A stretch of 24,000 bases of DNA from Caldilineaceae bacterium (GTDB lineage: Bacteria; Chloroflexota; Anaerolineae; Caldilineales; Caldilineaceae): assembly GCA_965208275.1 (NCBI GenBank), contig OZ242331.1, positions 2,093,225 through 2,117,224 of the forward strand. Reading direction: 5' to 3'. The translations under genes and the position numbers were made by a program. Shown piece after piece: positions 1,380 through 19,899 of this stretch (position 1 is the stretch's first letter; every line of letters starts with the position of its first letter). The notes under the pieces were generated by a model. It saw only the letters and a list, made by a program, of their open reading frames with translations, had not been told where the DNA came from and searched no databases.

Positions 1380-2294
1380 TCAGTCCTCGTACATCTCTTT
1401 GGTCATCCGATGGCGCGATGTAAATGAGGCATCCGGCGGCAGCGGCATCAAGCCGCCCACCATTTCGCTGCGCCGTCCCATGTGGGCCGACTGCGGCTCG
1501 GTTATGCGCGCCAGTTCGGCGTCAGTGATCGGGAGCGTGTAGCGGACAAGGGGCGTGAAGCGCTGAAACTGCTCGGCGTAGGCGACGAGGGCCTTGTTGC
1601 CGTAATGCCCGTCTGACGATTCGGCGCGCTTGCGGGCATACGCGCCGCCGTAGTACTGGCTGGCGATCTCGTCCAGGGCGCGCACCTTCTTGTCGATCAC
1701 GTCGGTGATGTCGATGTACACGTCGGCGCGGGCGGTCCCGGCGTATTCCAGACTGTCGTTGCCGACGTAGGCCATCGGGTTCATGAAATAGATGCAGGGA
1801 ATGGGATGACGCTCCTGGCGGCCGCGGCCCGAGCCCTGCGCCTGCTGCCAGGCGTAGAGCGCGCACTGGCCGGTCGAGCCGTGCATCTTGAAGCCGCCGC
1901 TCTCGAACGGCTGGTGCGTGATCATAAGGTCGGGCTTGACCGCGCGAATCACCTCGGCGATGGCGTCGATCTTGTCCTGCGTGACAAGAACGTCGTCGTC
2001 CTCAAAGCCGAGGTCGCGCACGTCGTCGAAGCCGAGTGTCCGGCACGCCCGCCGCACCTCCTCCAGCTTCTCCTCGACCGCCTGTGCGACGAACTGCTCC
2101 ACGTCCAGATCGGCGCCGGCCCGGCGCTTCTGCTCGCCAAGCTCCCAGTGGTGGGAGCGCACGCCCGTTGTAAGAATGGCCGCGGTTACGCTGTCGCCCT
2201 GGTCGACGTGGTGGGCGAGTGTGCCGCCGGCCATATCGAAGCTGTCGGCCGGATGCGCCGCGACCAGAAGAATCTGTATCGGTCTGCTTGCCAT
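1380..2294 (-). CDS. PIG-L / LmbE family N-acetyl-sugar deacetylase
   Basis: N-terminal ILLVAAHPADSFDMAGGTLA matches the AHPDD(E) LmbE signature. I chose the ATG at 2294 (304 aa), which has GGGAG 6 nt upstream. The track start at 2342 is a TTG forming a TTGA overlap with the upstream stop and remains an alternative. Confidence 0.75.
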   Translation of the reverse strand: MASRPIQILLVAAHPADSFDMAGGTLAHHVDQGDSVTAAILTTGVRSHHWELGEQKRRAGADLDVEQFVAQAVEEKLEEVRRACRTLGFDDVRDLGFEDDDVLVTQDKIDAIAEVIRAVKPDLMITHQPFESGGFKMHGSTGQCALYAWQQAQGSGRGRQERHPIPCIYFMNPMAYVGNDSLEYAGTARADVYIDITDVIDKKVRALDEIASQYYGGAYARKRAESSDGHYGNKALVAYAEQFQRFTPLVRYTLPITDAELARITEPQSAHMGRRSEMVGGLMPLPPDASFTSRHRMTKEMYED

Positions 2295-2338
2295 GAAGGA
2301 CTCCCTTGACGTGGATGGGCCTTGCGCGGCCTTGCGGC

Positions 2339-3898
2339 TCAATTGAGCGGTGGGAAGAATGTGAGATCGGCCCCGAAGTTGGACATGGCCGCCACGGAGT
2401 CGCCGCGCAGCTGCACGCCAATCTCGCGCGTCCGGTGCTTCAATACGATTTTCGACTCAGCCAGGTTGAATTCGATCGCAACCCATCGATTCAGTTGCGG
2501 GCGGCTCAAAACAAGGTAGCCGTTGCTCCACTGGTGCCCGCTCCCGATCCCGTCTACCCTGACCGAATCGGGCGTAACCCAGGTGGGTATACGGACGTAG
2601 AGCGGGCCCGGTCGTTTGACGCGCACGCGCAGGCTCCCGTTTGTATACGGGGACTCAACCGCAACCGCGTCTGTTTCTCGATCGAAGAGCAGGTGCACCC
2701 AGTGCCCGGCTTCGTCCGACACCACCGTTTGACGCATTGCTTCGCACAGTGAAGCCACTGCCCCGCCGACAATGTCCATGTTGAAGCTGATCCTCGTCGC
2801 GTCCAGCGGCTTATGGCCGTAGGGCGCGGGAAAGCCAAATGCGCCAAGATGACGCGCGGCGACATCCCTTTTGCCATCCTCGTCTTGCGGGTTGTCAGGC
2901 TCGCGAATGAAAGAGGTGTCGCGCAGCTGCGAAGGCAGCAGATGGCAGCGCAGAATCCTTTCGGCGTCCTCAAAATATGCTGGATACCCCCACTTCCCCA
3001 GAATCAGCGCCGTCTCGACGATGTCGCCCGTGTTGTTGACCTCGCCACGGTCCGGGTCGACGCGGTCGGCGCTGCTTTCGATGACCCAGCCGATCTCGTC
3101 GCGGATCTCGTTCAGTCCGTTGTCGTAAAATGCCCTCACCCTCTCCATCAAAGGCGCGTCTCGGTTCAGATCGGCCAGCTGGGCCAATGATGAAAGTACG
3201 CAAGTTGTCGAATGTGTATGCGTGCCGAAAGACTCACGGTCGTATCCGCCGCCGGGCAGGAAGAACTCGTCGGTGGCCTTACGCGCCAGCTCCAGTGCCA
3301 GGTCGAGCGCGCCCTTGCAACCCGTGTAGCGATGCAGCTTTACAAGCGGGCCGATCGCGCGGGCCAGGCCGGCAACGAATGTCGTGGAATGGAAGTCGAT
3401 CTCGTCGCCCAGGGCGGCCCTGTCCCACCCTTGTTCCCGGTCCCACAGCCGCTGGATCGCCTCGATGCTTGCTTCGGCCGTTGCCAGGGCCTGCTCGGAG
3501 CCGCGGAAGCGGGCCAGCGCGTAGAGGGCGTGAAAGCCCTCGCGTACATCGTGGGGAGAGAAGTGCTTGAGCCTGCCGCCGATGCGGTCGCGGTTGAGCG
3601 GCAGCGAATGTTCGCCGGAGTAGGACAAAAAGGCGGCGCGCGCGTGCCGGTCGATACAGCCCTCGTCGATATAGACGCCGGCTGCGTCTTCGGCGCTCAG
3701 GAGCGCGTTCAGATGACGCCCCGGAACATGGGACTCGTTATGCGTCGAGCTGAAACTCAGCCTCGCTTCCGGCCACACCTGCGAACCGAAAAAGGGAACG
3801 TCATCGTCATCGGCGTTGAAGACGGAACACATCGTCCGGCAGCCCAGCCGGATCGCTTCTCTGATATCCGCCGTGTTGACGTCGGCAAGCATCGTCAC
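2339..3898 (-). CDS. Six-hairpin (alpha/alpha)6-barrel plus C-terminal beta-sandwich protein, DUF1680/GH127-like architecture, specificity unknown
   Basis: The C-terminal pattern LYVRIPTWV..VRVDG..NGYLVLSR..NRWVAIEFNL resembles the GH127/DUF1680 tail. The helical N-terminal part is rich in repeats. No CC dipeptide or ETCA-like Zn/Cys site is seen, so it is not a canonical GH127. Start set to GTG 3898, with AAGGAG at 3905-3910 and a 6-nt spacer. The track start at 3997 overlaps the upstream gene and has no RBS. Confidence 0.55.
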   Translation of the reverse strand: MTMLADVNTADIREAIRLGCRTMCSVFNADDDDVPFFGSQVWPEARLSFSSTHNESHVPGRHLNALLSAEDAAGVYIDEGCIDRHARAAFLSYSGEHSLPLNRDRIGGRLKHFSPHDVREGFHALYALARFRGSEQALATAEASIEAIQRLWDREQGWDRAALGDEIDFHSTTFVAGLARAIGPLVKLHRYTGCKGALDLALELARKATDEFFLPGGGYDRESFGTHTHSTTCVLSSLAQLADLNRDAPLMERVRAFYDNGLNEIRDEIGWVIESSADRVDPDRGEVNNTGDIVETALILGKWGYPAYFEDAERILRCHLLPSQLRDTSFIREPDNPQDEDGKRDVAARHLGAFGFPAPYGHKPLDATRISFNMDIVGGAVASLCEAMRQTVVSDEAGHWVHLLFDRETDAVAVESPYTNGSLRVRVKRPGPLYVRIPTWVTPDSVRVDGIGSGHQWSNGYLVLSRPQLNRWVAIEFNLAESKIVLKHRTREIGVQLRGDSVAAMSNFGADLTFFPPLN

Positions 3899-3918: not shown

Positions 3919-5613
3919 TCAGGACCGCGCCTGAAACTGGAAGCCGTAAAGAGTGGACTCGAGCAACGAGAATTGGACCCGCACAGGCCTGTTCCACAGT
4001 TGACGCAAGTCAGGCCCGCCTTCCCAGGCCGCCGTATGCCAGATCTGCGAAGACGGCGCGTGCAGCGGGACCGACTGCTCCAGGCTGAAGCCGGGATAAG
4101 GCTTGAGTTCGGAATCGAGCAGTGCGACGCGCAGCGAGCCATAGGCGCAGTCGGCGTTGACCCGCAGCTCGTCGCCTTCGAATACAAACTGCTTCGTAAC
4201 GACCTGGCCCAATTCATATCTGGGACGGACCGCGGCCCAGCCGTCCTCGCGCAGCACAAGGCCGCCGATGCCGCGTTGCATAGACGCTTCCCGCCGCACT
4301 CTGTCCATCATCGGACTGCCCATCCCGTGCCGGCTCAGCTCTTCGATATGATGGCGGGAAGCCCTGGCTGCTGCCGCGGGCGCATGGTTGGAGACCCCGG
4401 CGGGCCGCGTGTCGCGCTGCTTGTGCGGAAAGGCGGAGTAGGCGATCACCATTCTGCCGTTATGCAGCAGGTAGTCGGATACGGTATGGGCCAGGTAGCC
4501 GTAGTCCTGGCTGCCGGGCGGTCCGTTGTCCGCCCAGGGCCGGTAGCCGTCGGCGCGAAAGAACCGATGGCCGTCGCGGCTGGCGTACAGCGCGGCCTTG
4601 ACATGGAACTGATCGCGCTGGTTGCTGCCGTCGCGGTTGACCAGCCACTGGTGTTCGCCGTGCGCCTCCTCGACGATGCCGATGTATAGGCCCCCCTCCT
4701 TGCGCACGGACATCGTGTGGAGCTCGACATTGGGGCCGACGCCGGGGTCCCAGTCGCCCGAAAGGATGACCTGTTTGGGCGACCAGTTGATGAAGTCGGC
4801 GCTCTCCTGGCGGCCGATCGTGCGGATGTGCAGGTGGCTGGCGAATGCGTGCGAGGCCTGCGAGTAGCCGGCCCACTTGCCATAGGCATCGTCCCAGATG
4901 ACGCGCATCTGGTGGTGATGGCGGAAGGGCGTGTCGTCGCTTATCACCTGCCAGCTAATCCCGTCCGGCGATGCGGCAACGCGTGACATGACGCGATTGC
5001 CGCGGCGGACGGCCTCCATCGATGGGTTGTAGACGGCCAGGAACTTGCGCGACGGGTCGCTCCTGTCCTGATTGAGAACAATGGTGCCGTTGTCGAAGTC
5101 CCGCATGACGATATTGGTACGCTGCTGGTCCGCGAACGGCTGACTGTCGTCGCGCATCGGCTTGTGCCACTGCAGCGCGTCGGCAGATTCGGCGTAGCAA
5201 AGCACGACCTCGGTCCCCTGCGCCGAGTTCGTGTTGCCGCTCACCAGCGTTTTGTACCACATCTTGTAGAGACCGTCGTCCGGGTCGTACAGGGCCGCCG
5301 CCGGGACACAGGTGAAGTGGTAGCGCTCCCAGGGCAGGTCCTCGTACGCGATGAGAGGGGACGCCGCCTTGTCCGGCCTCACGATGATCCGCTCCGCATC
5401 GATCAGTTCATCCAGAATGTAGTTGTCGAGGAAGAGTTGCTTTTGCCTGCCGATATGCTTGAATGGGAGGCGGTAGGGCGGATTGAAGTAGGGGTAGGTG
5501 AGGGGGTCCACGGGCCGATCACCCGCCCAGGTCTCCTCCATCGCCCGATTGGTGTCGGCGAGTTCGGTCTCGCTTCGCGCTTCTGGAGCAAGATGCAGAT
5601 CGCCTTCGGCCAT
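3919..5613 (-). CDS. Cytoplasmic beta-propeller glycosidase-like protein with C-terminal beta-sandwich (GH32/43/68-clan-like), paralog 1
   Basis: 564 aa. Contains QLFLDNYILD, YDPDDGLYKMWY, SPDGISW and a C-terminal LVLREDGWAAV..TKQFVFEGDELRVNAD..LRVALLD jelly-roll pattern like GH32-type C-domains. GGGAGGA lies 4 nt upstream of the ATG. No signal peptide. Clear paralog of 9461..11110. Confidence 0.6.
   Translation of the reverse strand: MAEGDLHLAPEARSETELADTNRAMEETWAGDRPVDPLTYPYFNPPYRLPFKHIGRQKQLFLDNYILDELIDAERIIVRPDKAASPLIAYEDLPWERYHFTCVPAAALYDPDDGLYKMWYKTLVSGNTNSAQGTEVVLCYAESADALQWHKPMRDDSQPFADQQRTNIVMRDFDNGTIVLNQDRSDPSRKFLAVYNPSMEAVRRGNRVMSRVAASPDGISWQVISDDTPFRHHHQMRVIWDDAYGKWAGYSQASHAFASHLHIRTIGRQESADFINWSPKQVILSGDWDPGVGPNVELHTMSVRKEGGLYIGIVEEAHGEHQWLVNRDGSNQRDQFHVKAALYASRDGHRFFRADGYRPWADNGPPGSQDYGYLAHTVSDYLLHNGRMVIAYSAFPHKQRDTRPAGVSNHAPAAAARASRHHIEELSRHGMGSPMMDRVRREASMQRGIGGLVLREDGWAAVRPRYELGQVVTKQFVFEGDELRVNADCAYGSLRVALLDSELKPYPGFSLEQSVPLHAPSSQIWHTAAWEGGPDLRQLWNRPVRVQFSLLESTLYGFQFQARS
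4775..4815. repeat. 41-nt tract identical to 10296..10336 (inside paralogous genes)
   Basis: ttgggcgaccagttgatgaagtcggcgctctcctggcggcc occurs at both sites and encodes GRQESADFINWSPK on the minus strand. Confidence 0.9.
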
Positions 5614-6012
5614 TGCGTCCTCCCGGACAAAAAACTGTGGCGGTTCATACGGGAAAACTGTCCCAAGGTACAGCTCGGCCGCCTGCGGCGTAACCGAAAC
5701 GAAATCTGTAGAGCCGGCAGCCAGCCAACTCTATCTTCAGCCGGATCGGCCGATTGCACAAACTGCGCCAGTCCGAACTGCCGTGCTAGATGCGTTCGCT
5801 CTGTCGCCGGACCACCATTTGCTCGAAGGCCTGTTTCTTCTCTTTGGCACTTGCCGCGTGCAGTTCCATGTGAATTGCGGCAGGGCGAAAACGGGAACCA
5901 TCGGCAGTCGGCTTCCGTTCGTTCGGCAATGGGTAGGACGTCAAGCGTTGGAGCGCTGCCCCACTTGGTGAATGGAACCTGAAGCGCTTCCCGGATTCCT
6001 GGAGGACCGGTT

Positions 6013-6720
6013 TTGCAGAAACAAACAGATCGTACTTCGCATAACGCGCAGCCATCTGCCGTCCGGAGATTCCTTCTTGCCGCAACTGTCCTGCTACTGT
6101 CGCTCGTGGCGGCGGCAGGCTACTTTCTCGCCAATGCGTACCGTGAGGGCCAGGAAATTCGTCGATACGTGGGTGGACCGTTCGGCCAGCAGCTGCTTTA
6201 CATGCAGGCGTGCGTATTGACAGACCGCGCCGGCGCCGCCGGCGCGGACTCTCTTGAAGCCCAGCTGGATACCTGCCGGCGCGGCCGCAGCCCCCAGGCC
6301 GGTTACTTTGTCTACGACTTCAACATCGGCAGGTCGGTCCCTCTTGGCGAAGAGGACCTGGCGCTGTGGAAGGAGTACGCCGTGTTCTCCTTTCCAGACT
6401 CCGTCGACGGGGAGGTCGTTGCCAGCGAGTCCAATCCGTTCAATCGTATCGTCCCGTTCGCAGACTTTACGGGCTTCGACTACGACTGTCTGCCCGTTGG
6501 GGACACAAGCGACTTTGCTTGCAAACGCGCCCCGGCTTCGTGCGACCTGAGCGCCCACTCGATCCGTTGCAGCGTGACGGACCCGCATACGGGAGAATCT
6601 GAACTGCACGTCATCGAGCGCGACCCAAAACTGGATCTCCTGCTGCCGCACGGATTCATCACCGGTCCGGATATCTTTAAGATGCTGAAACCACGCTTCT
6701 TCCCCCGGCTTGACAGCTAA
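6013..6720 (+). CDS. Hypothetical membrane-anchored, Cys-rich protein
   Basis: 235 aa with a TTG start and GGAGGA (6001-6006) 6 nt upstream. N-terminal signal-anchor helix FLLAATVLLLSLVAAAGYFLA. Six cysteines in the predicted extracytoplasmic part. No recognisable family. It is one of only three plus-strand genes, and the only one inside the minus-strand block. Confidence 0.55.
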   Translation: MQKQTDRTSHNAQPSAVRRFLLAATVLLLSLVAAAGYFLANAYREGQEIRRYVGGPFGQQLLYMQACVLTDRAGAAGADSLEAQLDTCRRGRSPQAGYFVYDFNIGRSVPLGEEDLALWKEYAVFSFPDSVDGEVVASESNPFNRIVPFADFTGFDYDCLPVGDTSDFACKRAPASCDLSAHSIRCSVTDPHTGESELHVIERDPKLDLLLPHGFITGPDIFKMLKPRFFPRLDS

Positions 6721-6779
6721 CGGCGCACGCCGCTACTGCATTGTGCAATCGGCGGCAAGCAGGCCCGGGACGCGCGCGG

Positions 6780-7556
6780 TCAGGCAGGAAAATGTTGCAC
6801 CGGACGTCGCTTGCCCCGCCTGTGGGCGTACAGCTCCTGCAGCGGCTGCGGGAATCTGTCAAAGATGTCGGCAGGGACGAAGGCGGCATTGCGCTTGCCG
6901 TACTCCGTGCTCAGCCACCAGGGCGAATAACGGGCGACCACTGAGGTGCGGGTCTCGTCGGTCGTGTTGGCTCCGCGCGAGTGCCAGATGCGGCTGTCGA
7001 TCAGCACCACGTCGCCGGCATCGCCGCAGACCTGCCGCTCGTTCGGAATCGCGCTGTGCTCGTCGATTCCGTCCTTCTCCCCGCGCGGGTTTGTGGGCTC
7101 GCGATGCGTGCCGGGCACGACCCACGTGGCGCCGTTCTCAGGCGTGAACTGATAGAGCATCCAGATGGAAGTGATGCTCATGATCATGTCGGGGAACGGC
7201 TGATTGACGCGCCCGCAGAAGGAACGGTCGGTCAGATCATGCGGCCAGTCGGTGTGAAAGCCGCGCCACGCCGGCGGATCGCTCCTGGGCGGAACGCTCT
7301 TGAACTCGGTCTGCGAAATGCGGACTGTGGCGTGGTTGAACATCGTCCGTACGATGCTCAGCAGTCTTGCGTCGGCAAAATAGGGCGCCAGCGAGAGCAT
7401 GTGGGTGACGGCAGACCAGTCGAGCTCATTGTATGCCTTGAGCCCGGCCACCATTGCGTTATCAATGTCGCTGCGAATGCCGCTTATCTCACCCTCGGGG
7501 ATTACGCCCTTGAGTAGACAGAAGCCGTCGCGGCGCAGCTGCGAAATCTCTTCCAT
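6780..7556 (-). CDS. Phytanoyl-CoA dioxygenase (PhyH) family Fe(II)/2-oxoglutarate-dependent oxygenase
   Basis: 258 aa. HxD facial-triad motif in GFHTDWPHD, distal His in IWHSRGANTT, and Arg in SVVARYSPWW. GGAGAG lies about 4 nt upstream of the ATG. Confidence 0.75.
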   Translation of the reverse strand: MEEISQLRRDGFCLLKGVIPEGEISGIRSDIDNAMVAGLKAYNELDWSAVTHMLSLAPYFADARLLSIVRTMFNHATVRISQTEFKSVPPRSDPPAWRGFHTDWPHDLTDRSFCGRVNQPFPDMIMSITSIWMLYQFTPENGATWVVPGTHREPTNPRGEKDGIDEHSAIPNERQVCGDAGDVVLIDSRIWHSRGANTTDETRTSVVARYSPWWLSTEYGKRNAAFVPADIFDRFPQPLQELYAHRRGKRRPVQHFPA

Positions 7557-7578
7557 ACCGTCTCTCCGCTGGCGTGAA

Positions 7579-7612
7579 GCGCCGGCCCGCGCAAGGAGGT
7601 GTCGGCCGGCGC
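7579..7612 (-). other. GC-rich hairpin in the 5' leader of the PhyH gene
   Basis: 9-bp stem gcgccggcc / ggccggcgc with a 16-nt loop. On the minus sense the loop carries CCUCCUU, complementary to Shine-Dalgarno sequences. It lies 23-56 nt upstream of ATG 7556. No U-tract follows, so it is not a classic terminator. Confidence 0.4.
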
Positions 7613-7613
7613 G

Positions 7614-7693
7614 GCCTGAGTCTACGCGAACCAGGCAGGGCGTAGAGGATTCAGAGCGTTCCTCTACAGTTCCCCTGCCTGGTAGCCTGAGTC
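7614..7693. repeat. 62-bp palindromic element (7623..7684) flanked by 9-bp direct repeats GCCTGAGTC; MITE/REP-like
   Basis: Direct repeats lie at 7614-7622 and 7685-7693. The termini are TAC[GCGAA]CCAGGCAGGG and CCCTGCCTGGTA, which form an inverted repeat. There is an inner 8-bp stem gtagagga/tcctctac and an outer 10-bp stem ccaggcaggg/ccctgcctgg (7631-7640 / 7673-7682). Confidence 0.5.
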
Positions 7694-7770
7694 ATGCTCG
7701 GTAACCCGGCTTAAGGCCCGGTCAGGTTGCTACGATTTGCAGTTGCCCCGGCAGCTTGGCGCTCGCACGA

Positions 7771-9414
7771 TCAGCGCCAGTCGTCAACAGAGACTGTTCC
7801 GCCGTAGTTGCACCCCATGATGCGCCAGTAGCCGTTTGTCTCACCGCCGACGACGACGACGTGGATGTCGTCAAGCTCGTAGACCGGAATCATCTCGTCA
7901 GCGTCCACCTTGAGCTTGCTGGCATGCGGTTCGACGCCGTTGAGCGCCTGCGGGTAGACGTAGTTTTCGATCAGCTGGTAGTCCCAGTAGATCCCCGAGG
8001 GCATGGTGGCGTTGTCGTGGACCCACTGGATCAGCTTCTCCTTGGTGTCGAAGCCGCCGCGGTCGATGAACTGCTGCGCCGTGATGGGATCGAGCACCAG
8101 CGTCGGCGGGTTGTGCGGGTTGAGGCCGCGCAGCATATTGCGCACGTGGTCCTGCCAGTGCTTCGCCCGCAGGCCGAGATTGAACGCGGTTGACCGGCAG
8201 CCGCCGAAGACGCTGACCGCGCTCTGGTCCGGTTCGAAGCCGTGCTGCACGTGGAAGGGCACCCACGGACTGCGCTCTTCATTCTCGGCGAAGGTGACGC
8301 TGTTGTAGGCGTAGTTGTTGCCCTGCGAACCTAGATAGGTCACTTCGGGCAGCGAGCCGCCCTGCAGGTTCTGCGAGAGCAGGCCATAGGCGCGTCCGAT
8401 CGTGGCATTGGCGTGATTGTACGGGCCCATTGCGCCGATGCCCCAGTTCATCCCAATCTCCTCGCGGACGGGACCGTTGACGACCGCCATCGACGCGGCC
8501 GAGCTTGTTGTGCTGGCACGGGCCGACGCGCAGGTCGCGGCCAGGGCCAGGATCACGGGCAGGTACTCGGGCCTGGCGCCGGCCATCACCGCGTTGACCG
8601 CCACTTTCTCAACGGTGTACTGCCAGGCTTCGCGCGTCGAGGTTGGCCGCATGTGGCCCACCACCGTGTCCGGGCTGCGGCTGGTCCCTTTCAACATGGC
8701 CTCAACCCGCTCCTCTGTCGGCAGGATGATCGGCAGCATGTCGGTCCAACGATTGTCCACGAAGAGATGGTGCAGATTCTCCTCACTGTCAGACTCGACA
8801 AAGCGGGGCGTAGAGCGGTCGAAGGCGTGCGCGCGCGTCTCCTCCGCCGAGGGCGCGCGCGTGAGCGCGGCGATGACCTCGCCCATGAAGGGACGGCCGG
8901 TGATGTCGTCAGGTCCGTCGACGTAGGCGCGCAGCTGCTCGGGAGAGCGGCCCATGACCGGCTGCGGCACGAAGGCATGGCGCAGATAGGGGATCCCCTG
9001 CTGCAGGGTGGAAGCCTTCACCAGGGGCTCGAAGATCCCCGTCTGGATGGAGGCCGTGGCAACGTTGTACTCGGTTTCCAGAATAATGCATTGGTCGGCG
9101 ACCGCCGGCGCACAGGTACTTCAATGGCCGACGGCCATGACGGCCCCTGCCCCCTTCCGCTGGATCTCCGTATAGAGCGCTTCGTCCCGCTCGGTGTAGA
9201 CGCCCGACTTGCGCCGCACTTCGATCTGTATGTCGGGCCGGTTCTCGCGAAACCAGTTCGCCATCTGTTCAACCAGGATGTCGCCGTCGTCGAAGCGGCA
9301 GTCGACGAGGTAGACAGTCTTCCCGGCCAGGTCGCTGACACGCGGCGCCAGATGCTTCTGGTCAATCTGGGGAGGATAGCCCATCGGGTTGTGAACGCGC
9401 AGATCTGTGGCCAT
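7771..9414 (-). CDS. Putative selenoprotein: UGSC-like U-x-x-C redox module fused to a domain of unknown function (547 residues, Sec at 98 encoded by TGA 9121-9123)
   Basis: Track ORFs 9121..9414 and 7771..9021 share one frame, and the 33 codons between them (9022..9120) contain no stop. The only interruption is one TGA, in the context AVGH-U-STCAPAVADQC. AAGGAG (9421-9426) lies 6 nt upstream of ATG 9414, whereas the GTG at 9021 has no SD. GC3 of the bridging codons is 26/33, which is coding-like. A hairpin follows the TGA. Confidence 0.7.
9087..9112 (-). promoter_or_regulatory. Candidate bacterial SECIS hairpin
   Basis: Numbered from the U of UGA as +1. Lower stem +12-15 / +34-37 (UGCG/UGCA, including one G-U pair). 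Upper stem +17-20 / +25-28 (CGGC/GCCG). Apical loop GGUC at +21-24, which places G-U at +22/+23. Confidence 0.5.
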
Positions 9415-9460
9415 ACCTTGCTCCTTACAAATTGGATTCTCGATTAAGTCTTGTCTCCGC

Positions 9461-11110
9461 CTATTCTACATCATTTTCCGAATTGAGAAACTGAAAAGAA
9501 TAAAGGCTGGCCTCATGCACTTGAAACCGAATCCTCACCGGTCTGTCCCACAGCGTCCGCAGGTCGCCTCCGCCCTGCCAGCGGACCGTGTGCCAGATCT
9601 GGTCCGCCGCCCCGATGAGCGGGTCGCACTGCTGCGCCGAGAAGCCATCGTACGGCTGGAAGCAGGGATCGAGGAGCTCGACGCGGACGTATCCGTAGCG
9701 GCAGTCGGCATTGACGCGCAGCGAGTCCCCTTCGAACACGAACTGTTTGGTTAGGACCCGGCCGGACTCGTAGGCTGGGACGAGACGGGCCCAGCCGTCT
9801 TCGCGCAGGATCAGGCCATTGACCGCCCGCCGGATTCCAGACTCGCCCTGAATCGCCGCGCGCGCCCTCCATTCCTGTTGCCGGCGCGCGAACTCCTCGC
9901 GAGGATAGAGCGGTGTCGGCGGCCCGGGGTGCAGCCAGCTCTGCTTCTGCGGATTGGCGCTGTAGGGGATCACCATGCGACCGTCGTGTACGAGCGTCCC
10001 CGCGGGTGTGAAGCAGGCGAACCCGTAGTCCTGGTCGCCCGGATCACCGGTGTCGACCCAGGGACCGGGGCCGCCCACGCGCTGCCAGCGCCTTCCGTCG
10101 CGGCTGGTGTAGAGGCCCAGGCGGCTGAAAGCCTGGTCGCGCCAGTTGTGGCCGTCTCGCTCCTGCCAGAAAGGCTCGGCCATGAACTCGCTTGTTATGC
10201 CGATGTAGAGCCCGCCGATTTTGCGTGCCGACATGTCGTGCATCTCGAGGTCGGGCGGCAGGTTGGCGTCCCAGTCGGCCGAAAGCGCGACCTCCTTGGG
10301 CGACCAGTTGATGAAGTCGGCGCTCTCCTGGCGGCCAATCTGACGCTTGCGGTAAAGAAAGTTCTGGTGATGGGAATACTGGCTGAAGCCGACCCAGCGC
10401 CGGATGCTCCCGTCCCAGAATATCTTCTGTTCGTGGTGATGAGGAAATGCACTCTCCTCGCTGATCGTATGCCAGCGGATTCCGTCCGGCGAGGCGTCGA
10501 CGCGCGAGAGGCGGGGGCTGTTGGGCGGGCGAACGCGCGCTGCTTTCGGCGGCCAGTTTACCAGCAGGTACTTGCGGTCGGGGTCGCTGCGGTCATAGTT
10601 GAGCGCCAAGCCGGACTGGGACACGTCCGGATGGACGATGTTGGTTGCCTTGTGCCCTTCAAAGGGAAGGCAGTCGTCGCGCAGCGGCTTTTCCCACTGG
10701 AGCGCGTCCCTGGATTCAGCGTAACAGAGTACTTGACCCTCGTTGAAAGCGTGTCCGGTCAAACCCTGCCAGTACCACATTTTGAAGAGGCCGTCGTCGG
10801 GGTCGTGGACGACGCCGGCGGTGCCGGGATTGAACTGCACCTGCTCCCACGGCAGGTCGGACCAGGCGAGCAGAGGTTCGGCTGTTTTGGCGGGAACGCA
10901 AACCTCGCGGCGTACGCCTTCAAGGTGGTCGAGAATGAAGTTGTCGAGGAAGAGCTGGCGCTCCGTGCCGATGTGGAGGAAGGGCACACGGTAGTCGGGC
11001 GGAATGTAGGGGTAGTCCCTTTCGACCGGCCGGGCGCCGGACCTGATTGCATCGGTCTTCTGCTGGATGTCGAGTGGCTCGGTTGGACTCTGGCGTTCAG
11101 GCGTGTTCAC
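9461..11110 (-). CDS. Cytoplasmic beta-propeller glycosidase-like protein with C-terminal beta-sandwich, paralog 2
   Basis: 549 aa with a GTG start and GGAGG 11 nt upstream. Collinear with 3919..5613 at roughly half identical residues by eye. Shared blocks are QLFLDNFILD, DPDDGLFKMWY, IGRQESADFINWSPK, GLYIGI, DGRMVI.YSA, LREDGWA and TKQFVFEGD.LRVNADC.YG. Confidence 0.6.
   Translation of the reverse strand: MNTPERQSPTEPLDIQQKTDAIRSGARPVERDYPYIPPDYRVPFLHIGTERQLFLDNFILDHLEGVRREVCVPAKTAEPLLAWSDLPWEQVQFNPGTAGVVHDPDDGLFKMWYWQGLTGHAFNEGQVLCYAESRDALQWEKPLRDDCLPFEGHKATNIVHPDVSQSGLALNYDRSDPDRKYLLVNWPPKAARVRPPNSPRLSRVDASPDGIRWHTISEESAFPHHHEQKIFWDGSIRRWVGFSQYSHHQNFLYRKRQIGRQESADFINWSPKEVALSADWDANLPPDLEMHDMSARKIGGLYIGITSEFMAEPFWQERDGHNWRDQAFSRLGLYTSRDGRRWQRVGGPGPWVDTGDPGDQDYGFACFTPAGTLVHDGRMVIPYSANPQKQSWLHPGPPTPLYPREEFARRQQEWRARAAIQGESGIRRAVNGLILREDGWARLVPAYESGRVLTKQFVFEGDSLRVNADCRYGYVRVELLDPCFQPYDGFSAQQCDPLIGAADQIWHTVRWQGGGDLRTLWDRPVRIRFQVHEASLYSFQFLNSENDVE
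10296..10336. repeat. 41-nt tract identical to 4775..4815
   Basis: Same 41-mer as in paralog 1, with flanks about 85% identical over roughly 80 nt. Confidence 0.9.
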
Positions 11111-13208: not shown

Positions 13209-13243
13209 TGGGGTCGCTGACGTTCGTTTGGGACGGTGCGGTC

Positions 13244-13271
13244 AGTATAGTCCATGTCGATCGGCGGGCAA
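13244..13271 (-). promoter_or_regulatory. Candidate sigma70-type promoter for the Kelch-PhyH-propeller-selenoprotein-PhyH operon
   Basis: Minus sense reads TTGCCC (13271-13266), a 16-nt spacer, then TATACT (13249-13244), ending 35 nt upstream of ATG 13208. It lies in the only sizeable non-coding gap upstream of this gene block. Confidence 0.35.
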
Positions 13272-13307
13272 AAGGAGGTGTTCGGTTCTGAGTTCTGGTG
13301 CGTGTCA

Positions 13308-13679
13308 TCAAAGTCGCTGCCGGAGATTGGACAGGCCCTGGACCCGGTGCGTTTCCCGCAAACGGAAGCCTTTTGTACAAGCCTTGCTCAGAGGCCATGA
13401 GAACAATCCCTGACTGTACGAGATGACAAGGAAAAACACACAGACTGCAAAGGGGGTCCGGACGCGCCAGAACAGGAACCGATGCAGGCCGCCTACTCTG
13501 ACCTGGTTGGTTGCCCGCGGAAATCTGTCGGGTTCATCGGCTGCAAGTTCCCTTCCGGTTCCCAGTCTGCATTCGGACCCAGATCTCTTTCCGCAGGCAG
13601 GTTGAGGGGTTGGACCCGAACGCCCACGACAATGTACAAACGTCCTGTTCGGCAGGCGGTCCCCAGAGTGCCCCCGCAT
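13308..13679 (-). pseudogene. Decayed partial tandem duplicate of the small membrane-protein gene 13710..14081
   Basis: Shares AADEP(D/E)RFPR (13515-13544 versus 13806-13835, offset 291 nt) followed by Q(V/I)R..GL...F.(F/M)W. It has no RBS at its ATG, lacks the N-terminal TM helix, and sits in a lower-GC spacer. Confidence 0.3.
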
Positions 13680-13709
13680 CCGGTTTAGAGTTGCTGAGTT
13701 TCAATGTAC

Positions 13710-14081
13710 TTATCTGCCTGAGAGCAACAAACCAATCAGTCTGCCTGCCCAGACGGTCCACATGACGAACAGGAGCAGACCCAGAAGCCTGATCTGCAGG
13801 AGGACGCGGGGAAACCTCTCGGGCTCATCGGCGGCACTGAGAAAGACGTCCGCGGAAGGCGCGCCCAGGAATAAGCGAAAGAGGGCGGAGGGCCAGGGGC
13901 CTATCTTCACGCCGGGCCACCCCTCGCCCGGCTTCCGTTCGAATCTGAAGAGCCGCTGCCAGCACCTGATCTGCCATGCGAGGAATCTCTTTGGCCTGAA
14001 CAGGAGCAGGCAGCAGATTGGAGGCGACACGAGGACCAGTGGGCCCAGTACTGCAATCGTGAGGAGTTCGTCGCCCGTCAA
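13710..14081 (-). CDS. Small hypothetical membrane protein (2-3 TM helices)
   Basis: 123 aa with a TTG start. GGAGCA lies 7 nt upstream, immediately after the aldolase stop codon. Hydrophobic helices are LLTIAVLGPLVLVSPPICCLLLF and LLGLLLFVMWTVWAGRLIGLLL. Confidence 0.45.
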   Translation of the reverse strand: MTGDELLTIAVLGPLVLVSPPICCLLLFRPKRFLAWQIRCWQRLFRFERKPGEGWPGVKIGPWPSALFRLFLGAPSADVFLSAADEPERFPRVLLQIRLLGLLLFVMWTVWAGRLIGLLLSGR

Positions 14082-14092
14082 CCTGTTGCTCC

Positions 14093-17792: not shown

Positions 17793-18845
17793 TCAGTGCC
17801 CCGGCGGCAGCGGCAGGTCGACGCGGACGTTGCCGCGGGCGTGGGACTGCAGAATGCCGACAAGAATCTCGACCGTCTTCTTGGCTTCTCTTGCCGGGCT
17901 GAGCAGGTCGCCGCCGTTTTCGATTGCGTTGATCAGTTCGACGACGCAAGCCGGGATGCCGATGAACTGGTGGTCGGGAAAGGGAAAGAACTCGGTCGTG
18001 TTGCGGTCGCGGCGGATAACACGGCTGGGGTGGACCTCGATCAGGCCGGTCTCGCCGAACACCTGGTAGCGGAAGCTGTCCCGGAACTGCTCTTTTGCCA
18101 GATTGATGAAGGCGCGCACGCCGTTGCGAAAGTGGACGTAAGCCGAGGCTGCCGGATCGGTCGCCGGGTCGCGCCCGCCGTCCCCCAGGTACCTGTCGTA
18201 GTGGTCGTATCCCGGTTCAAGGTGCCCGAAGACCCACTCCGGGTCCGAATCGGCAAAGAAGCAGACGCCGTCTATCAGGTGTGTACCGTTGCGGAACATC
18301 ATGGCGCGCGGGGTGCCGAGGTGGGCGACGATTCGGTGCACTTTGCCAATCGATCCGTCGCGGATCGCCTGCCTGGCCACGTCGTAGTGTGGACGCCAGC
18401 GATTGGTGTGATCGACGACAAGAAGCGAGCCGCTGGCCTCGCAGGCTTCGATCATGCGCGTTGCTTCGTCGACGCTGGTGGCAAGCGGCTTTTCGCAAAT
18501 GATTCCCTTTACGCCGGCATGGGCCGCGGCGATGACGATGTCGGTATGCCGGTGGTCCGAAGTGCAGACGCTCAATATGTCCAGATTCTCCCGCTCGATC
18601 ATGGCGCGGTAGTCGGTGTATGTCTCCAGCTCACCGAACTCCTGGCCCCATGTCTGCGCCACCCTTTCGAACAGCTCAGTCTTCAGGTCGCAGACTGCAA
18701 CTACGTCGGTCTGGGGCACGAGATGGTACGCGCCAAGATGAGAGGACGGACTGGGCGACTTCAGTATGCTGTCTGCTTGCGGTGCGGGCCGGTTTGCGGA
18801 GATGCCAGACAGACCGACGACCGCGGCGCGATAACGGTTCTGCAT
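17793..18845 (-). CDS. Gfo/Idh/MocA family oxidoreductase
   Basis: 350 aa from ATG 18845, with GGAGAGGAG 7 nt upstream and the upstream stop TAG 4 nt away. Contains RAAVVGLSGIS and ICEKPLA. The track's 151-residue N-terminal extension overlaps the Ldh_2 gene and is Arg/Ser/Pro-rich junk. Confidence 0.8.
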   Translation of the reverse strand: MQNRYRAAVVGLSGISANRPAPQADSILKSPSPSSHLGAYHLVPQTDVVAVCDLKTELFERVAQTWGQEFGELETYTDYRAMIERENLDILSVCTSDHRHTDIVIAAAHAGVKGIICEKPLATSVDEATRMIEACEASGSLLVVDHTNRWRPHYDVARQAIRDGSIGKVHRIVAHLGTPRAMMFRNGTHLIDGVCFFADSDPEWVFGHLEPGYDHYDRYLGDGGRDPATDPAASAYVHFRNGVRAFINLAKEQFRDSFRYQVFGETGLIEVHPSRVIRRDRNTTEFFPFPDHQFIGIPACVVELINAIENGGDLLSPAREAKKTVEILVGILQSHARGNVRVDLPLPPGH

Positions 18846-18849
18846 ATCT

Positions 18850-19899
18850 CTACTCCTCTCCTGCTTCCCTGTCGAGCGAAATGTCCAGTTTCTCTGCCCA
18901 AACTTCGATCTTGCCATAGGTCTCCGCCGGCACTTCGATTCCTTCGGCCAGGCGCTGCTGCCGCGAGCGATGCTCGAAGTCGCCCGGGACGAGGACTTCG
19001 TCAAATCCCGGCGCCGGCGGCGTCGCTTTGATGGCATCCAACACGATGCGAACCTGGCGCTGATACTCATCGAGGGGCGAAAACCCGGCCACGTCGTAGA
19101 CCTGCATGAAGAGGCCCGACATGGCGGAATGCTCGCCGGCAAAGCCGCCGGCCAGCCCGCCCATGAGGCTGAAGTATAGCGAGAGCGCATAGCCCTTGTG
19201 GCCGCCGAAGGGCAATAGCGAGCCGCCGTCAAAGTAGACGCCCGGATCGGTAGAGGGCCGCCCGTCCTTGTCGACGACGGCGCCGGGGGGTAGGTCAACG
19301 CCCTTATCGCGGGCGACGAGGATCTTGCCGCCGGCGATCACGCTGGTGGCAAAGTCTATGACGAAGGGGGCGTCGTCTCCGGTCGGAATGCCGACAGCCA
19401 TAGGATTGGTCCCGAGGCAGCCGCGCGCGCCGCCGAAGGGAACGACCTGCGAAGGGCCGTCTGAAGCCCAACCCAAGGTGATGACTGTGACGCAGCCGGC
19501 CCTGGCGGCCTGCTCTGCATATTCTCCCAGGCGGCCGATGTGCGTCGAATTCTCAAAAGTTACGCAGCAAACGGCGGTGCGTCTGGCCCGCTCGATCGCC
19601 CAATCCATGGCCTGGCGGCTCATATTATGGCCGAATCCGTAGTGCCCGTCCACGTGGACCGTTGTCGATGTCTCGCGCACGATTTCCGGCCGGGCCGCCG
19701 GCTTGAGCTCGCCGGCTTCGATTCGATCGAGATACATGGGGACGAACTGCACGCCGTGGGAATCGTGGCCGGCGAGGTTGGCGTTCACGAGAATGTCGGC
19801 GACTGTCGCGGCGATGTCTTCGGGCGTTCCGGCAGCCGAGAAGAGGTTGCGGCTGATCCTGCGGAGATAGCTGGCTGAATGGCGATTCGACTGTGTCAT
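18850..19899 (-). CDS. Ldh_2 (malate/L-lactate/sulfolactate/diketogulonate) family NAD(P)H-dependent dehydrogenase
   Basis: 349 aa. Contains LAGHDSHGV, TNPMAVGIP and LPFGGHKGYAL, which are hallmark blocks of the Ldh_2 family. Confidence 0.8.
   Translation of the reverse strand: MTQSNRHSASYLRRISRNLFSAAGTPEDIAATVADILVNANLAGHDSHGVQFVPMYLDRIEAGELKPAARPEIVRETSTTVHVDGHYGFGHNMSRQAMDWAIERARRTAVCCVTFENSTHIGRLGEYAEQAARAGCVTVITLGWASDGPSQVVPFGGARGCLGTNPMAVGIPTGDDAPFVIDFATSVIAGGKILVARDKGVDLPPGAVVDKDGRPSTDPGVYFDGGSLLPFGGHKGYALSLYFSLMGGLAGGFAGEHSAMSGLFMQVYDVAGFSPLDEYQRQVRIVLDAIKATPPAPGFDEVLVPGDFEHRSRQQRLAEGIEVPAETYGKIEVWAEKLDISLDREAGEE

Follow-up and report, generated by a model that had tools for sequence, protein, structure and literature searches.

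The DNA analysed here (the window) is a stretch of 24,000 nucleotides (nt) from a Caldilineaceae bacterium (Chloroflexota; contig OZ242331.1, positions 2,093,225 to 2,117,224). Located on its minus strand is a selenoprotein gene of 547 codons plus stop (7771..9414), in which an in-frame UGA at codon 98 is read through. Translation of the minus strand across 7771-9450 gave a single frame from an ATG at 9414 to a stop at 7773-7771, and the sole break in this frame is a TGA at 9123-9121. The product has 547 residues and carries V-G-H-U-S-T-C at residues 95-101. The UGA that encodes selenocysteine (Sec) 98 (9121..9123, minus strand) falls, in the model of a homolog, within the loop that follows a beta strand, just where a helix begins. 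Cys101, whose codon is at 9112..9114 on the same strand, is the presumed resolving partner of Sec98 in the U-S-T-C motif, as judged from sequence and alignment. Read from the sequence, a strong Shine-Dalgarno-like AAGGAG (9421..9426, minus strand) is positioned 6 nt 5' of the ATG. An earlier note, made from the sequence alone, had described a domain of unknown function fused to a Sec-containing U-x-x-C module. This description was confirmed, as one 547-codon frame carries the Pfam family PF24696 at residues 7-165, and all of the peptide strings quoted in that note were present in the translation.

The gene was compared across a set of 80 homologous loci taken from GTDB contigs, with one genome per species. 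These loci represent Chloroflexota, Latescibacterota, Binatia, Rokubacteria, Acidobacteriota, Actinomycetota, Planctomycetales, and Alpha-, Beta-, Gamma- and Deltaproteobacteria. An in-frame TGA was found at the aligned Sec position in 60 of the 80 loci, in many phyla, and was followed by STC, PGC, DGC or SSC. A Cys codon occupied the position in 15 loci (GHCSTC), including those of Rhizobium puerariae, Neorhizobium, Microbacterium album and Ramlibacter, and 5 loci were not readable in frame there. Sec or Cys is therefore present at one aligned position in 75 of the 80 loci, and U98-S-T-C101 of the window protein has the U/C-x-x-C pattern of the family.

Public gene callers break the gene in two, and the annotation of a relative shows a 97-aa open reading frame (ORF) and a 416-aa ORF. 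No tRNA gene, tRNA-Sec included, and no sel gene was found within the 24-kb window. Both observations would fit a pseudogene, or two genes split by a real stop. That explanation is effectively refuted by the TGA that 60 loci share at exactly the same alignment column, where 15 others have Cys, by conservation of the protein on both sides of the TGA, by full-length Cys homologs that model as a single rigid protein, and by a covarying hairpin with a GGUC loop after the TGA. Because the TGA recurs at the same position, alternates with Cys and is followed by this hairpin, comparison of the sequences indicates that the TGA of codon 98 is a genuine Sec codon.

The hairpin, which resembles a selenocysteine insertion sequence (SECIS), lies at 9093..9110 on the minus strand, spans 11-28 nt after the UGA and has its apical GGUC loop at 9100-9103. 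It was assessed from individual folds of 61 sequences and from covariation over 29 distinct sequences. The covariation score was 0.327 compared to 0.127 in shuffles (0 of 500 reached 0.327) and was above all slid controls, although the hairpin overlaps coding sequence and codon constraints add to the signal. Changes on both sides of the stem were seen in 5 of 7 pairs. The hairpin of the window itself is weaker than average, with an upper stem of 4 bp and one mismatch. Folded alone, the SECIS region of the window was unconvincing (z +1.3), and support for the hairpin comes entirely from the comparative analysis. An Rfam scan of the window gave no match.

The N-terminal portion of the protein is a UGSC domain (residues 7-165; 8920..9396, minus strand) that matched PF24696 with an E value of 9.9e-16 and 58.8 bits against a cutoff of 25. 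The same family was matched by 51 of 76 aligned relatives. The NCBIfam model NF041046, an equivalog model for a stand-alone UGSC protein of about 147 aa, scored the window protein at 43.5 bits, below its cutoff of 125; a stand-alone UGSC protein of Halorientalis scored 150.7 and a Variovorax fusion 76.3. Since the cutoff was missed, the window protein is a diverged, fused relative and not an equivalog. A UGSC-containing protein was reported in 2007 as a selenoprotein without known function (PMC1976440). A year later, UGSC was found fused to a conserved domain termed 'Unknown_1', was counted among the most abundant selenoproteins of surface-water metagenomes, and was guessed to have a thioredoxin fold (Zhang & Gladyshev 2008, PMC2398784). 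A 2026 review still places UGSC among the largely uncharacterised selenoproteins (PMC13188914). The window gene is a further member of this known family, which it resembles in the N-terminal PF24696 match, the position of U-x-x-C, the alternation of Sec and Cys, and the fused conserved domain. The fusion itself is not new, and 'Unknown_1' is very probably the C-terminal domain described below. The window protein differs from the family in its score against the equivalog model and in its motif, which is U-S-T-C in place of the canonical U-G-S-C. As the family is without known function, membership gives no mechanistic explanation.

Relatives of the protein are abundant. A word-indexed search returned at least 7975 relatives at E<=1e-3 (7975 of 8000 candidates); the best 120 of these matches were 72-97% identical, and each ended at the Sec codon. 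An exhaustive search of representatives at 50% identity gave 4036 relatives at E<=1e-3, of which 420 also reached E<=1e-30. Some close relatives are named 'UGSC family (seleno)protein' at NCBI. A 68%-identical Sec homolog (L014, DASRWT010000085.1, labelled Candidatus Nitrosocosmicus sp.) lies beside a copper amine oxidase gene in a thaumarchaeal bin, which is likely a binning artefact or horizontal transfer. Three relatives (P0189, P0217 and P0267) have hydrophobic segments resembling a signal peptide or lipoprotein leader ahead of the UGSC domain, and their N-termini suggest exported or membrane-anchored forms.

Structures were predicted with AlphaFold2 from a 77-sequence alignment. The full-length model of the Cys homolog P0121, which is 55-63% identical to the window protein, had a predicted local distance difference test (pLDDT) score of 93.6 and a predicted TM-score (pTM) of 0.92, and this pTM suggests that the two domains would form one rigid unit. 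The UGSC domain of the model consists of five parallel strands with alternation of beta strands and alpha helices. The Sec/Cys residue is placed in the loop that follows strand 3, and the first turn of the next helix contains the second Cys. Foldseek matched the UGSC domain to flavodoxin and SIS domains with probabilities of 0.9-0.99, and to the N-terminal domains of iron-dependent alcohol dehydrogenases (Fe-ADH). The predicted fold of the UGSC domain is thus flavodoxin-like, unlike the thioredoxin fold guessed in 2008; the five-strand beta-alpha model and its Foldseek neighbours show no thioredoxin fold around the redox motif. The linker between the domains (residues 166-204; 8803..8919, minus strand) is poorly conserved and had pLDDT values of 53-79 in the homolog model.

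The remainder of the protein is a C-terminal domain without known relatives (C-domain; residues ~205-547; 7774..8802, minus strand), whose boundary was set from split haloarchaeal genes and tandem-domain proteins. Its conserved motifs are WTDxLPIxLPTE, GTS, TVEKVAVNAVMAG, VNGP, GMNxGxxAxGP, NxANxxIGRA, AENEExSPW and VVVGG, and SVDxWR forms the extreme C-terminus in almost all members. In 76 aligned sequences, P232, A272, G279, G314 and E377 are invariant, and T224, D225, T233, T244, E269, S305, N323, N336, R341, W384, D544 and W546 are nearly so. The conserved polar residues are acidic residues, Arg, Asn, Ser and Thr (D225, E269, S305, N323, N336, R341, E377 and D544), and no conserved Cys or His was found in the C-domain in this alignment.

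The earlier note had claimed that the C-terminal region matches no characterised family, and the searches agreed. Pfam and NCBIfam scans of the window protein and 76 diverse relatives returned UGSC only and no family for the C-domain; DUF3234 was rejected because its matches (E 0.14 and 0.05) were below the cutoff. A sequence search of the PDB, with either the single sequence or the 76-sequence profile, returned only noise (a designed filament and MarA). The AlphaFold2 model of window residues 176-547 had a pLDDT of 93.2 and a pTM of 0.90, and neither of the two high-confidence models had a match at E<=1e-3 when the PDB was searched with Foldseek, so that the structural comparison proposed in that note yielded no confident remote relative. 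The top match, class I fumarate hydratase (E 3e-3, TM 0.22), and the Toblerone-fold cyclic amide hydrolases (E>0.05, TM ~0.18) were judged to be noise. Together these matches had E values of 3e-3 to 0.5, TM-scores of 0.17-0.25 and root-mean-square deviations of 11-18 Å, and they were dismissed because of the low TM-scores and the missing ligands: the C-domain lacks the conserved Cys ligands for the cluster of class I (Fe-S) fumarate hydratase, and no Ser-Lys dyads of the Toblerone type were identified in it. Stand-alone copies of the C-domain are labelled 'hypothetical protein' by PGAP. The C-domain, about 345 residues long, is an independent, strongly conserved module that belongs to no characterised family.

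In every full-length representative with a single C-domain that was scanned or aligned (511-667 aa), the UGSC domain is N-terminal. On a plasmid of Halorientalis litorea (NZ_CP095483.1, 5355-8017; L087), three separate adjacent genes encode, in order, a C-domain paralog of 330 aa, a stand-alone UGSC protein of 195 aa (CGSC) that passes NF041046, and a C-domain protein of 333 aa. This plasmid locus is surrounded by genes for a CoA transferase, a CoA ester lyase, an LLM oxidoreductase and a TAXI-TRAP binding protein. In other proteins, of 709-741 aa, the C-domain is present twice in tandem and UGSC is absent; at one locus that encodes such a protein, a Sec-split UGSC gene is directly upstream. 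These tandem forms suggest that the C-domain may work as a dimer. The C-domain is separable, yet it is genetically linked to UGSC in every architecture seen, whether fused, split and adjacent, or tandem.

The gene neighbourhoods of the 80 loci were surveyed next to these architectures. The commonest neighbour is a flavoprotein of about 300 aa resembling thioredoxin reductase (TrxR-like; Pyr_redox_2), with a CxxC in the motif GVSHC[AT][ST]CDG. Its gene was found at a distance of 10 kb or less in 43 of the 80 loci, and all 43 belong to the 69 loci whose flanks are adequate. In 31 loci the two genes are direct neighbours, and 30 of these pairs share a strand, with the TrxR-like gene downstream in 17 and upstream in 13. 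The TrxR-like gene accompanies 29 Sec forms and 10 Cys forms, as well as 4 loci of unresolved Sec/Cys status. Scores of the TrxR-like neighbour against TIGR01292 were 308-327 bits, just under the equivalog cutoff of 343, which indicates a dedicated paralog and not the housekeeping enzyme itself. No thioredoxin (TrxA-like) gene was found within 10 kb on either side at any of the 80 loci. The pairing holds even for a Variovorax plasmid homolog that is only 31% identical, where the order is TrxR-like, TctC, then the fusion protein with CGSC, and the gap to TctC is 3 nt.

Other neighbours are also recurrent. Genes for transporter binding proteins (TctC, DctP, TAXI-TRAP, SBP_bac_5, SBP_bac_1/8 and Peripla_BP_6) recur in all clades, and further recurrent neighbours are Amidohydro_2, SDR, AMP-binding, GntR/FCD, Meth_synt_2 and molybdenum hydroxylases. 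An uncultured delta proteobacterium contig (L013) is unusually dense in this respect, with nine TctC-like binding-protein ORFs in the 20 kb around the gene. In 10 loci, selD, selA or selB lies beside the gene, and 6 of these loci also have tRNA-Sec. Compact Sec islands, in which the gene is grouped with selD, TrxR-like, selA, selB and tRNA-Sec, were observed at L037, L046, L048, L057, L059 and L073, and also at L043, L045, L062 and L063.

We give a probability of roughly one half to the reading that the protein is a Sec-based reductase coupled to a TrxR-like partner. Electrons would pass from NAD(P)H to the FAD and then the CxxC of the TrxR-like protein, and would then reach the Se-S pair in UGSC, a domain that would take the role played elsewhere by thioredoxin. 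The selenolate would attack or reduce a small imported molecule held in a C-domain pocket lined by the acidic, Arg and Asn residues, and Cys101 would resolve the intermediate to give a selenenylsulfide that is then recycled. The window has no dedicated reductase close to the gene, so that electrons would have to come from the housekeeping thioredoxin system there, and an intermediate of the surrounding glycan or amino-sugar-like pathway may be the substrate. The reductive role suggested in the earlier note thus remains plausible in view of the dedicated TrxR-like neighbour in 43 of 80 loci, although the window itself and the nearest clade are without a TrxR-like gene.

Such a reductase would share several features with thioredoxin-dependent reductases such as methionine sulfoxide reductases, ArsC, peroxiredoxins and the AhpF-AhpC pair, namely a nucleophilic Sec or Cys with a resolving Cys and the coexistence of Sec and Cys forms. 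Relatives of the window gene mostly have a dedicated low-Mr flavoprotein of the TrxR family, as in pairing of the AhpF-AhpC type. In contrast to those enzymes, the window protein has no thioredoxin-fold element, its redox module is fused to a domain without relatives, and there is no relation in sequence or fold.

Several observations weigh against this reductase reading. The window and the nearest clade have no TrxR-like gene within reach, and evidence from gene neighbourhoods is circumstantial. That Sec98 lies close to the conserved C-domain residues is presumed only. Many members have lost both redox residues yet retain both domains, so the ancestral function of the C-domain, or one common to all members, cannot be redox chemistry. 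Several full-length relatives with both domains have non-redox residues at positions 98/101, namely P0123 (GGAT), P0138 (MDTL), P0151 (TVTS) and a distant clade with CSTT, SSTT or AATM. As both domains are kept without the redox residues, the basic function of the C-domain does not require the selenol. A hairpin motif of the C-domain also differs by clade: members of the redox clade have GGCRST, and those of the distant clade without redox residues have GGWxHxGN. The reductase reading predicts that forms lacking U/CxxC are without a TrxR-like neighbour, and this was observed for P0138, P0223, P0123 and P0226, although the comparison is weak, with four contexts of which two are contigs of only 4.6 and 5.6 kb. 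P0223 adjoins a gene of the PEP-mutase family, P0123 lies between SBP_bac_5 and a permease, and P0226 has a GntR regulator on one side and DctP on the other. P0138 sits among glycyl-radical enzymes and an activase. A contig (L091; JGI 3300049473) carries two non-redox paralogs of the P0138 type (1571-3319 and 6001-7701), with GHMDTLG replacing GHUSTC. These lie among two glycyl-radical enzymes, a radical-SAM activase and an amino-acid permease, an anaerobic context unlike the others.

These variants are the substance of the main rival, in which the C-domain converts transported small molecules as a non-redox catabolic enzyme (a hydrolase, lyase or isomerase), with the UGSC domain in a structural or regulatory role and the U-x-x-C pair of one clade added as a redox switch, not as the catalytic nucleophile. 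The many full-length relatives without redox residues, their location in transporter and catabolic operons without a reductase, the acid/base rather than Cys/His character of the conserved C-domain residues, and the clade-dependent hairpin motif all fit this explanation. A dedicated CxxC flavoprotein reductase adjacent to the gene in 31 loci would, however, be costly for a mere switch; Sec is normally kept at catalytic positions, and Sec machinery lies beside the gene in 10 loci. We regard the non-redox enzyme as a possible explanation, to be taken seriously but less probable than the reductase coupled to a TrxR-like partner.

A second rival retains the reductase chemistry in a self-contained detoxification or repair system, comparable to peroxiredoxin or sulfoxide reductase, with the TrxR-like protein as its sole partner and the nearby catabolic genes unrelated. 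It gains from the fact that, among highly variable neighbours, the reductase alone is widely conserved as a partner, from the high abundance of the family in surface-water metagenomes (PMC2398784), and from the compact islands with Sec machinery in some genomes. Genes for binding proteins and permeases nonetheless adjoin repeatedly, as in the 3-nt gap to TctC in Variovorax and the placement of P0123 between SBP_bac_5 and a permease, and non-redox variants exist. Several paralogs also occur in one genome (L022 with L049, L064 with L070, and the two copies in L091), which suggests substrate diversification. A detoxification or repair role is thus unlikely.

A third rival takes up a speculation of the earlier note and would make the protein an analog or homolog of GrdB and PrdB, a Stickland-type reductase that cleaves a C-N bond in an amino sugar or in an amine derived from a glycan. 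Operons of grd genes carry trxB, so that a U-x-x-C selenoprotein with a reductase in its operon, and an implied substrate-specific large subunit, are features in common; the reductase-like gene found here parallels the trxB of grd operons. The window also holds a PIG-L deacetylase and Opp-type permeases, and one homolog has a copper amine oxidase nearby. However, none of the 76 scanned members matched Pfam GRDB (PF07355) or Gly_reductase at E<=0.1, and the window protein had no GRDB match at E<=1. No pyruvoyl-type proprotein partner (GrdE/PrdA) or GrdA-type carrier was found among the window genes or among the Pfam-scanned or precomputed neighbours of relatives. The GTS motif is missing from the tandem-domain forms, the sugar context is not conserved, and the taxa that carry the gene appear for the most part to be non-fermentative inhabitants of soil and water, not typical Stickland fermenters. 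A Stickland-type reaction is accordingly very improbable.

The neighbours of the gene in the window are as the earlier note described: a Kelch/NanM-like protein, two PhyH and a BNR protein, together with three GFO/IDH/MocA, HpcH and PIG-L. The window also encodes Ldh_2, Amdase, DUF3830, Opp-type permeases and two paralogous proteins of about 550 aa. Directly upstream, 46 nt from the selenoprotein gene, is a gene for a 549-aa protein without a Pfam family (9461..11110, minus strand), which is probably co-transcribed with it and is not conserved beyond near-identical relatives. The 'glycosidase-like' label given to a window protein rests on sub-threshold matches only (GH127M, E 0.009; 4onz, a putative glycoside hydrolase, E 0.53). 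Downstream, a 2-oxoglutarate-dependent dioxygenase of the PhyH family (6780..7556, minus strand) is separated from the selenoprotein gene by a structured spacer of about 214-219 nt.

The earlier note had placed the protein in a sugar-catabolic operon, and it had named homolog neighbourhoods unrelated to carbohydrate genes as the result that would count against a link to sugars. Such neighbourhoods are what the survey found, and the link does not hold as a trait of the family. The same gene order around the target occurs only in relatives that are 89-97% identical. When 18 window neighbours were sought within 10 kb on either side at the 79 other loci, no recurrence was found beyond the near-identical L001 and weak isolated matches (Ldh_2 in L010 and two ABC permeases in L080). 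Among the 80 GTDB loci, only one had a GFO-family gene near the target, and such genes were also present in four further close lineages. On the other question that the note had raised for homologs, the unknown domain is indeed linked to a UGSC module, fused or adjacent, including the tandem-form locus with a UGSC gene upstream; it is not always in sugar loci.

In the closest clade (~70-83% identity, GH-U-STC), sugar-type genes lie beside the gene in several independent lineages and differ between lineages. P0027 has GFO, an APH kinase, BNR, a CBM9/beta-helix protein and heparinase; P0070 has GFO directly downstream and a glycoside hydrolase; and P0033 has AP_endonuc_2 directly downstream and GFO. 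L003 has GFO directly upstream, P0012 has a divergent ROK regulator and AP_endonuc_2/UxuA, and L010 has a CUT1-type binding protein and permeases. Elsewhere in this clade, members instead have a TrxR-like gene (L002, L004, L007, L008, L013 and L025) or unrelated neighbours. The phyla of this clade are rich in sugar-type genes. A sugar-related role is possible for the window sub-lineage; it is not a family property. Conservation does not extend to any specific partner enzyme, and an origin of the substrate in the adjacent sugar-type pathway is doubtful.

Further features of the window were observed around these genes. The upstream gene at 9461-11110 and a gene at 3919-5613, both on the minus strand, encode paralogs of about 550-565 aa without a Pfam or NCBIfam family, and thus represent a second uncharacterised family at the locus; the sub-threshold PDB match to 4onz (E 0.53) is the sole clue to what they are. 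Within the downstream spacer, 7631-7682 forms a long nested inverted repeat, CCAGGCAGGGCGTAGAGGA ... TCCTCTACAGTTCCCCTGCCTGG. The spacer fold had an energy of -99 kcal/mol (z -2.0), with no T-tract after the repeat and no Rfam match, and the repeat could be a terminator-like element or one resembling repetitive extragenic palindromic (REP) sequences. Between the Kelch-like and HpcH genes, about 880 nt (13209-14092) contain no convincing ORF and two weak inverted repeats. The same two genes are only about 190 nt apart in L081 (89% identical), and the segment may therefore be an insertion or a degraded gene. A 501-aa GFO/IDH/MocA ORF (17793-19298, minus strand) overlaps Ldh_2 (18850-19899, minus strand) by about 450 nt; its Pfam match begins at residue 186, and its true start is probably much further downstream.

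The reductase reading can be extended to a broader proposal, which we advance tentatively. The UGSC domain, the C-domain and the adjacent TrxR-like flavoprotein could constitute an undescribed NAD(P)H-driven Sec reductase system for diverse molecules delivered by transporters, with a catalytic domain that lacks structural relatives in the PDB. In the lineage of the window, this system would have been recruited into an operon of the glycan or amino-sugar type for a reductive step that is new there.

The function of the UGSC family has been open from 2007 through the 2026 review (PMC1976440, PMC2398784, PMC13188914), and its C-domain, which has neither a family model nor a structural relative, occurs in thousands of sequence clusters from many bacterial phyla and haloarchaea. 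The TrxR-like partner, the adjacent binding proteins and the natural Cys orthologs in cultivated Neorhizobium, Rhizobium puerariae, Microbacterium album and Variovorax make the family experimentally approachable. In the genomes with Sec islands (Alpha- and Gammaproteobacteria and others), the position of the gene beside complete Sec machinery hints that the UGSC-fusion protein may be a principal reason for keeping selenocysteine there.

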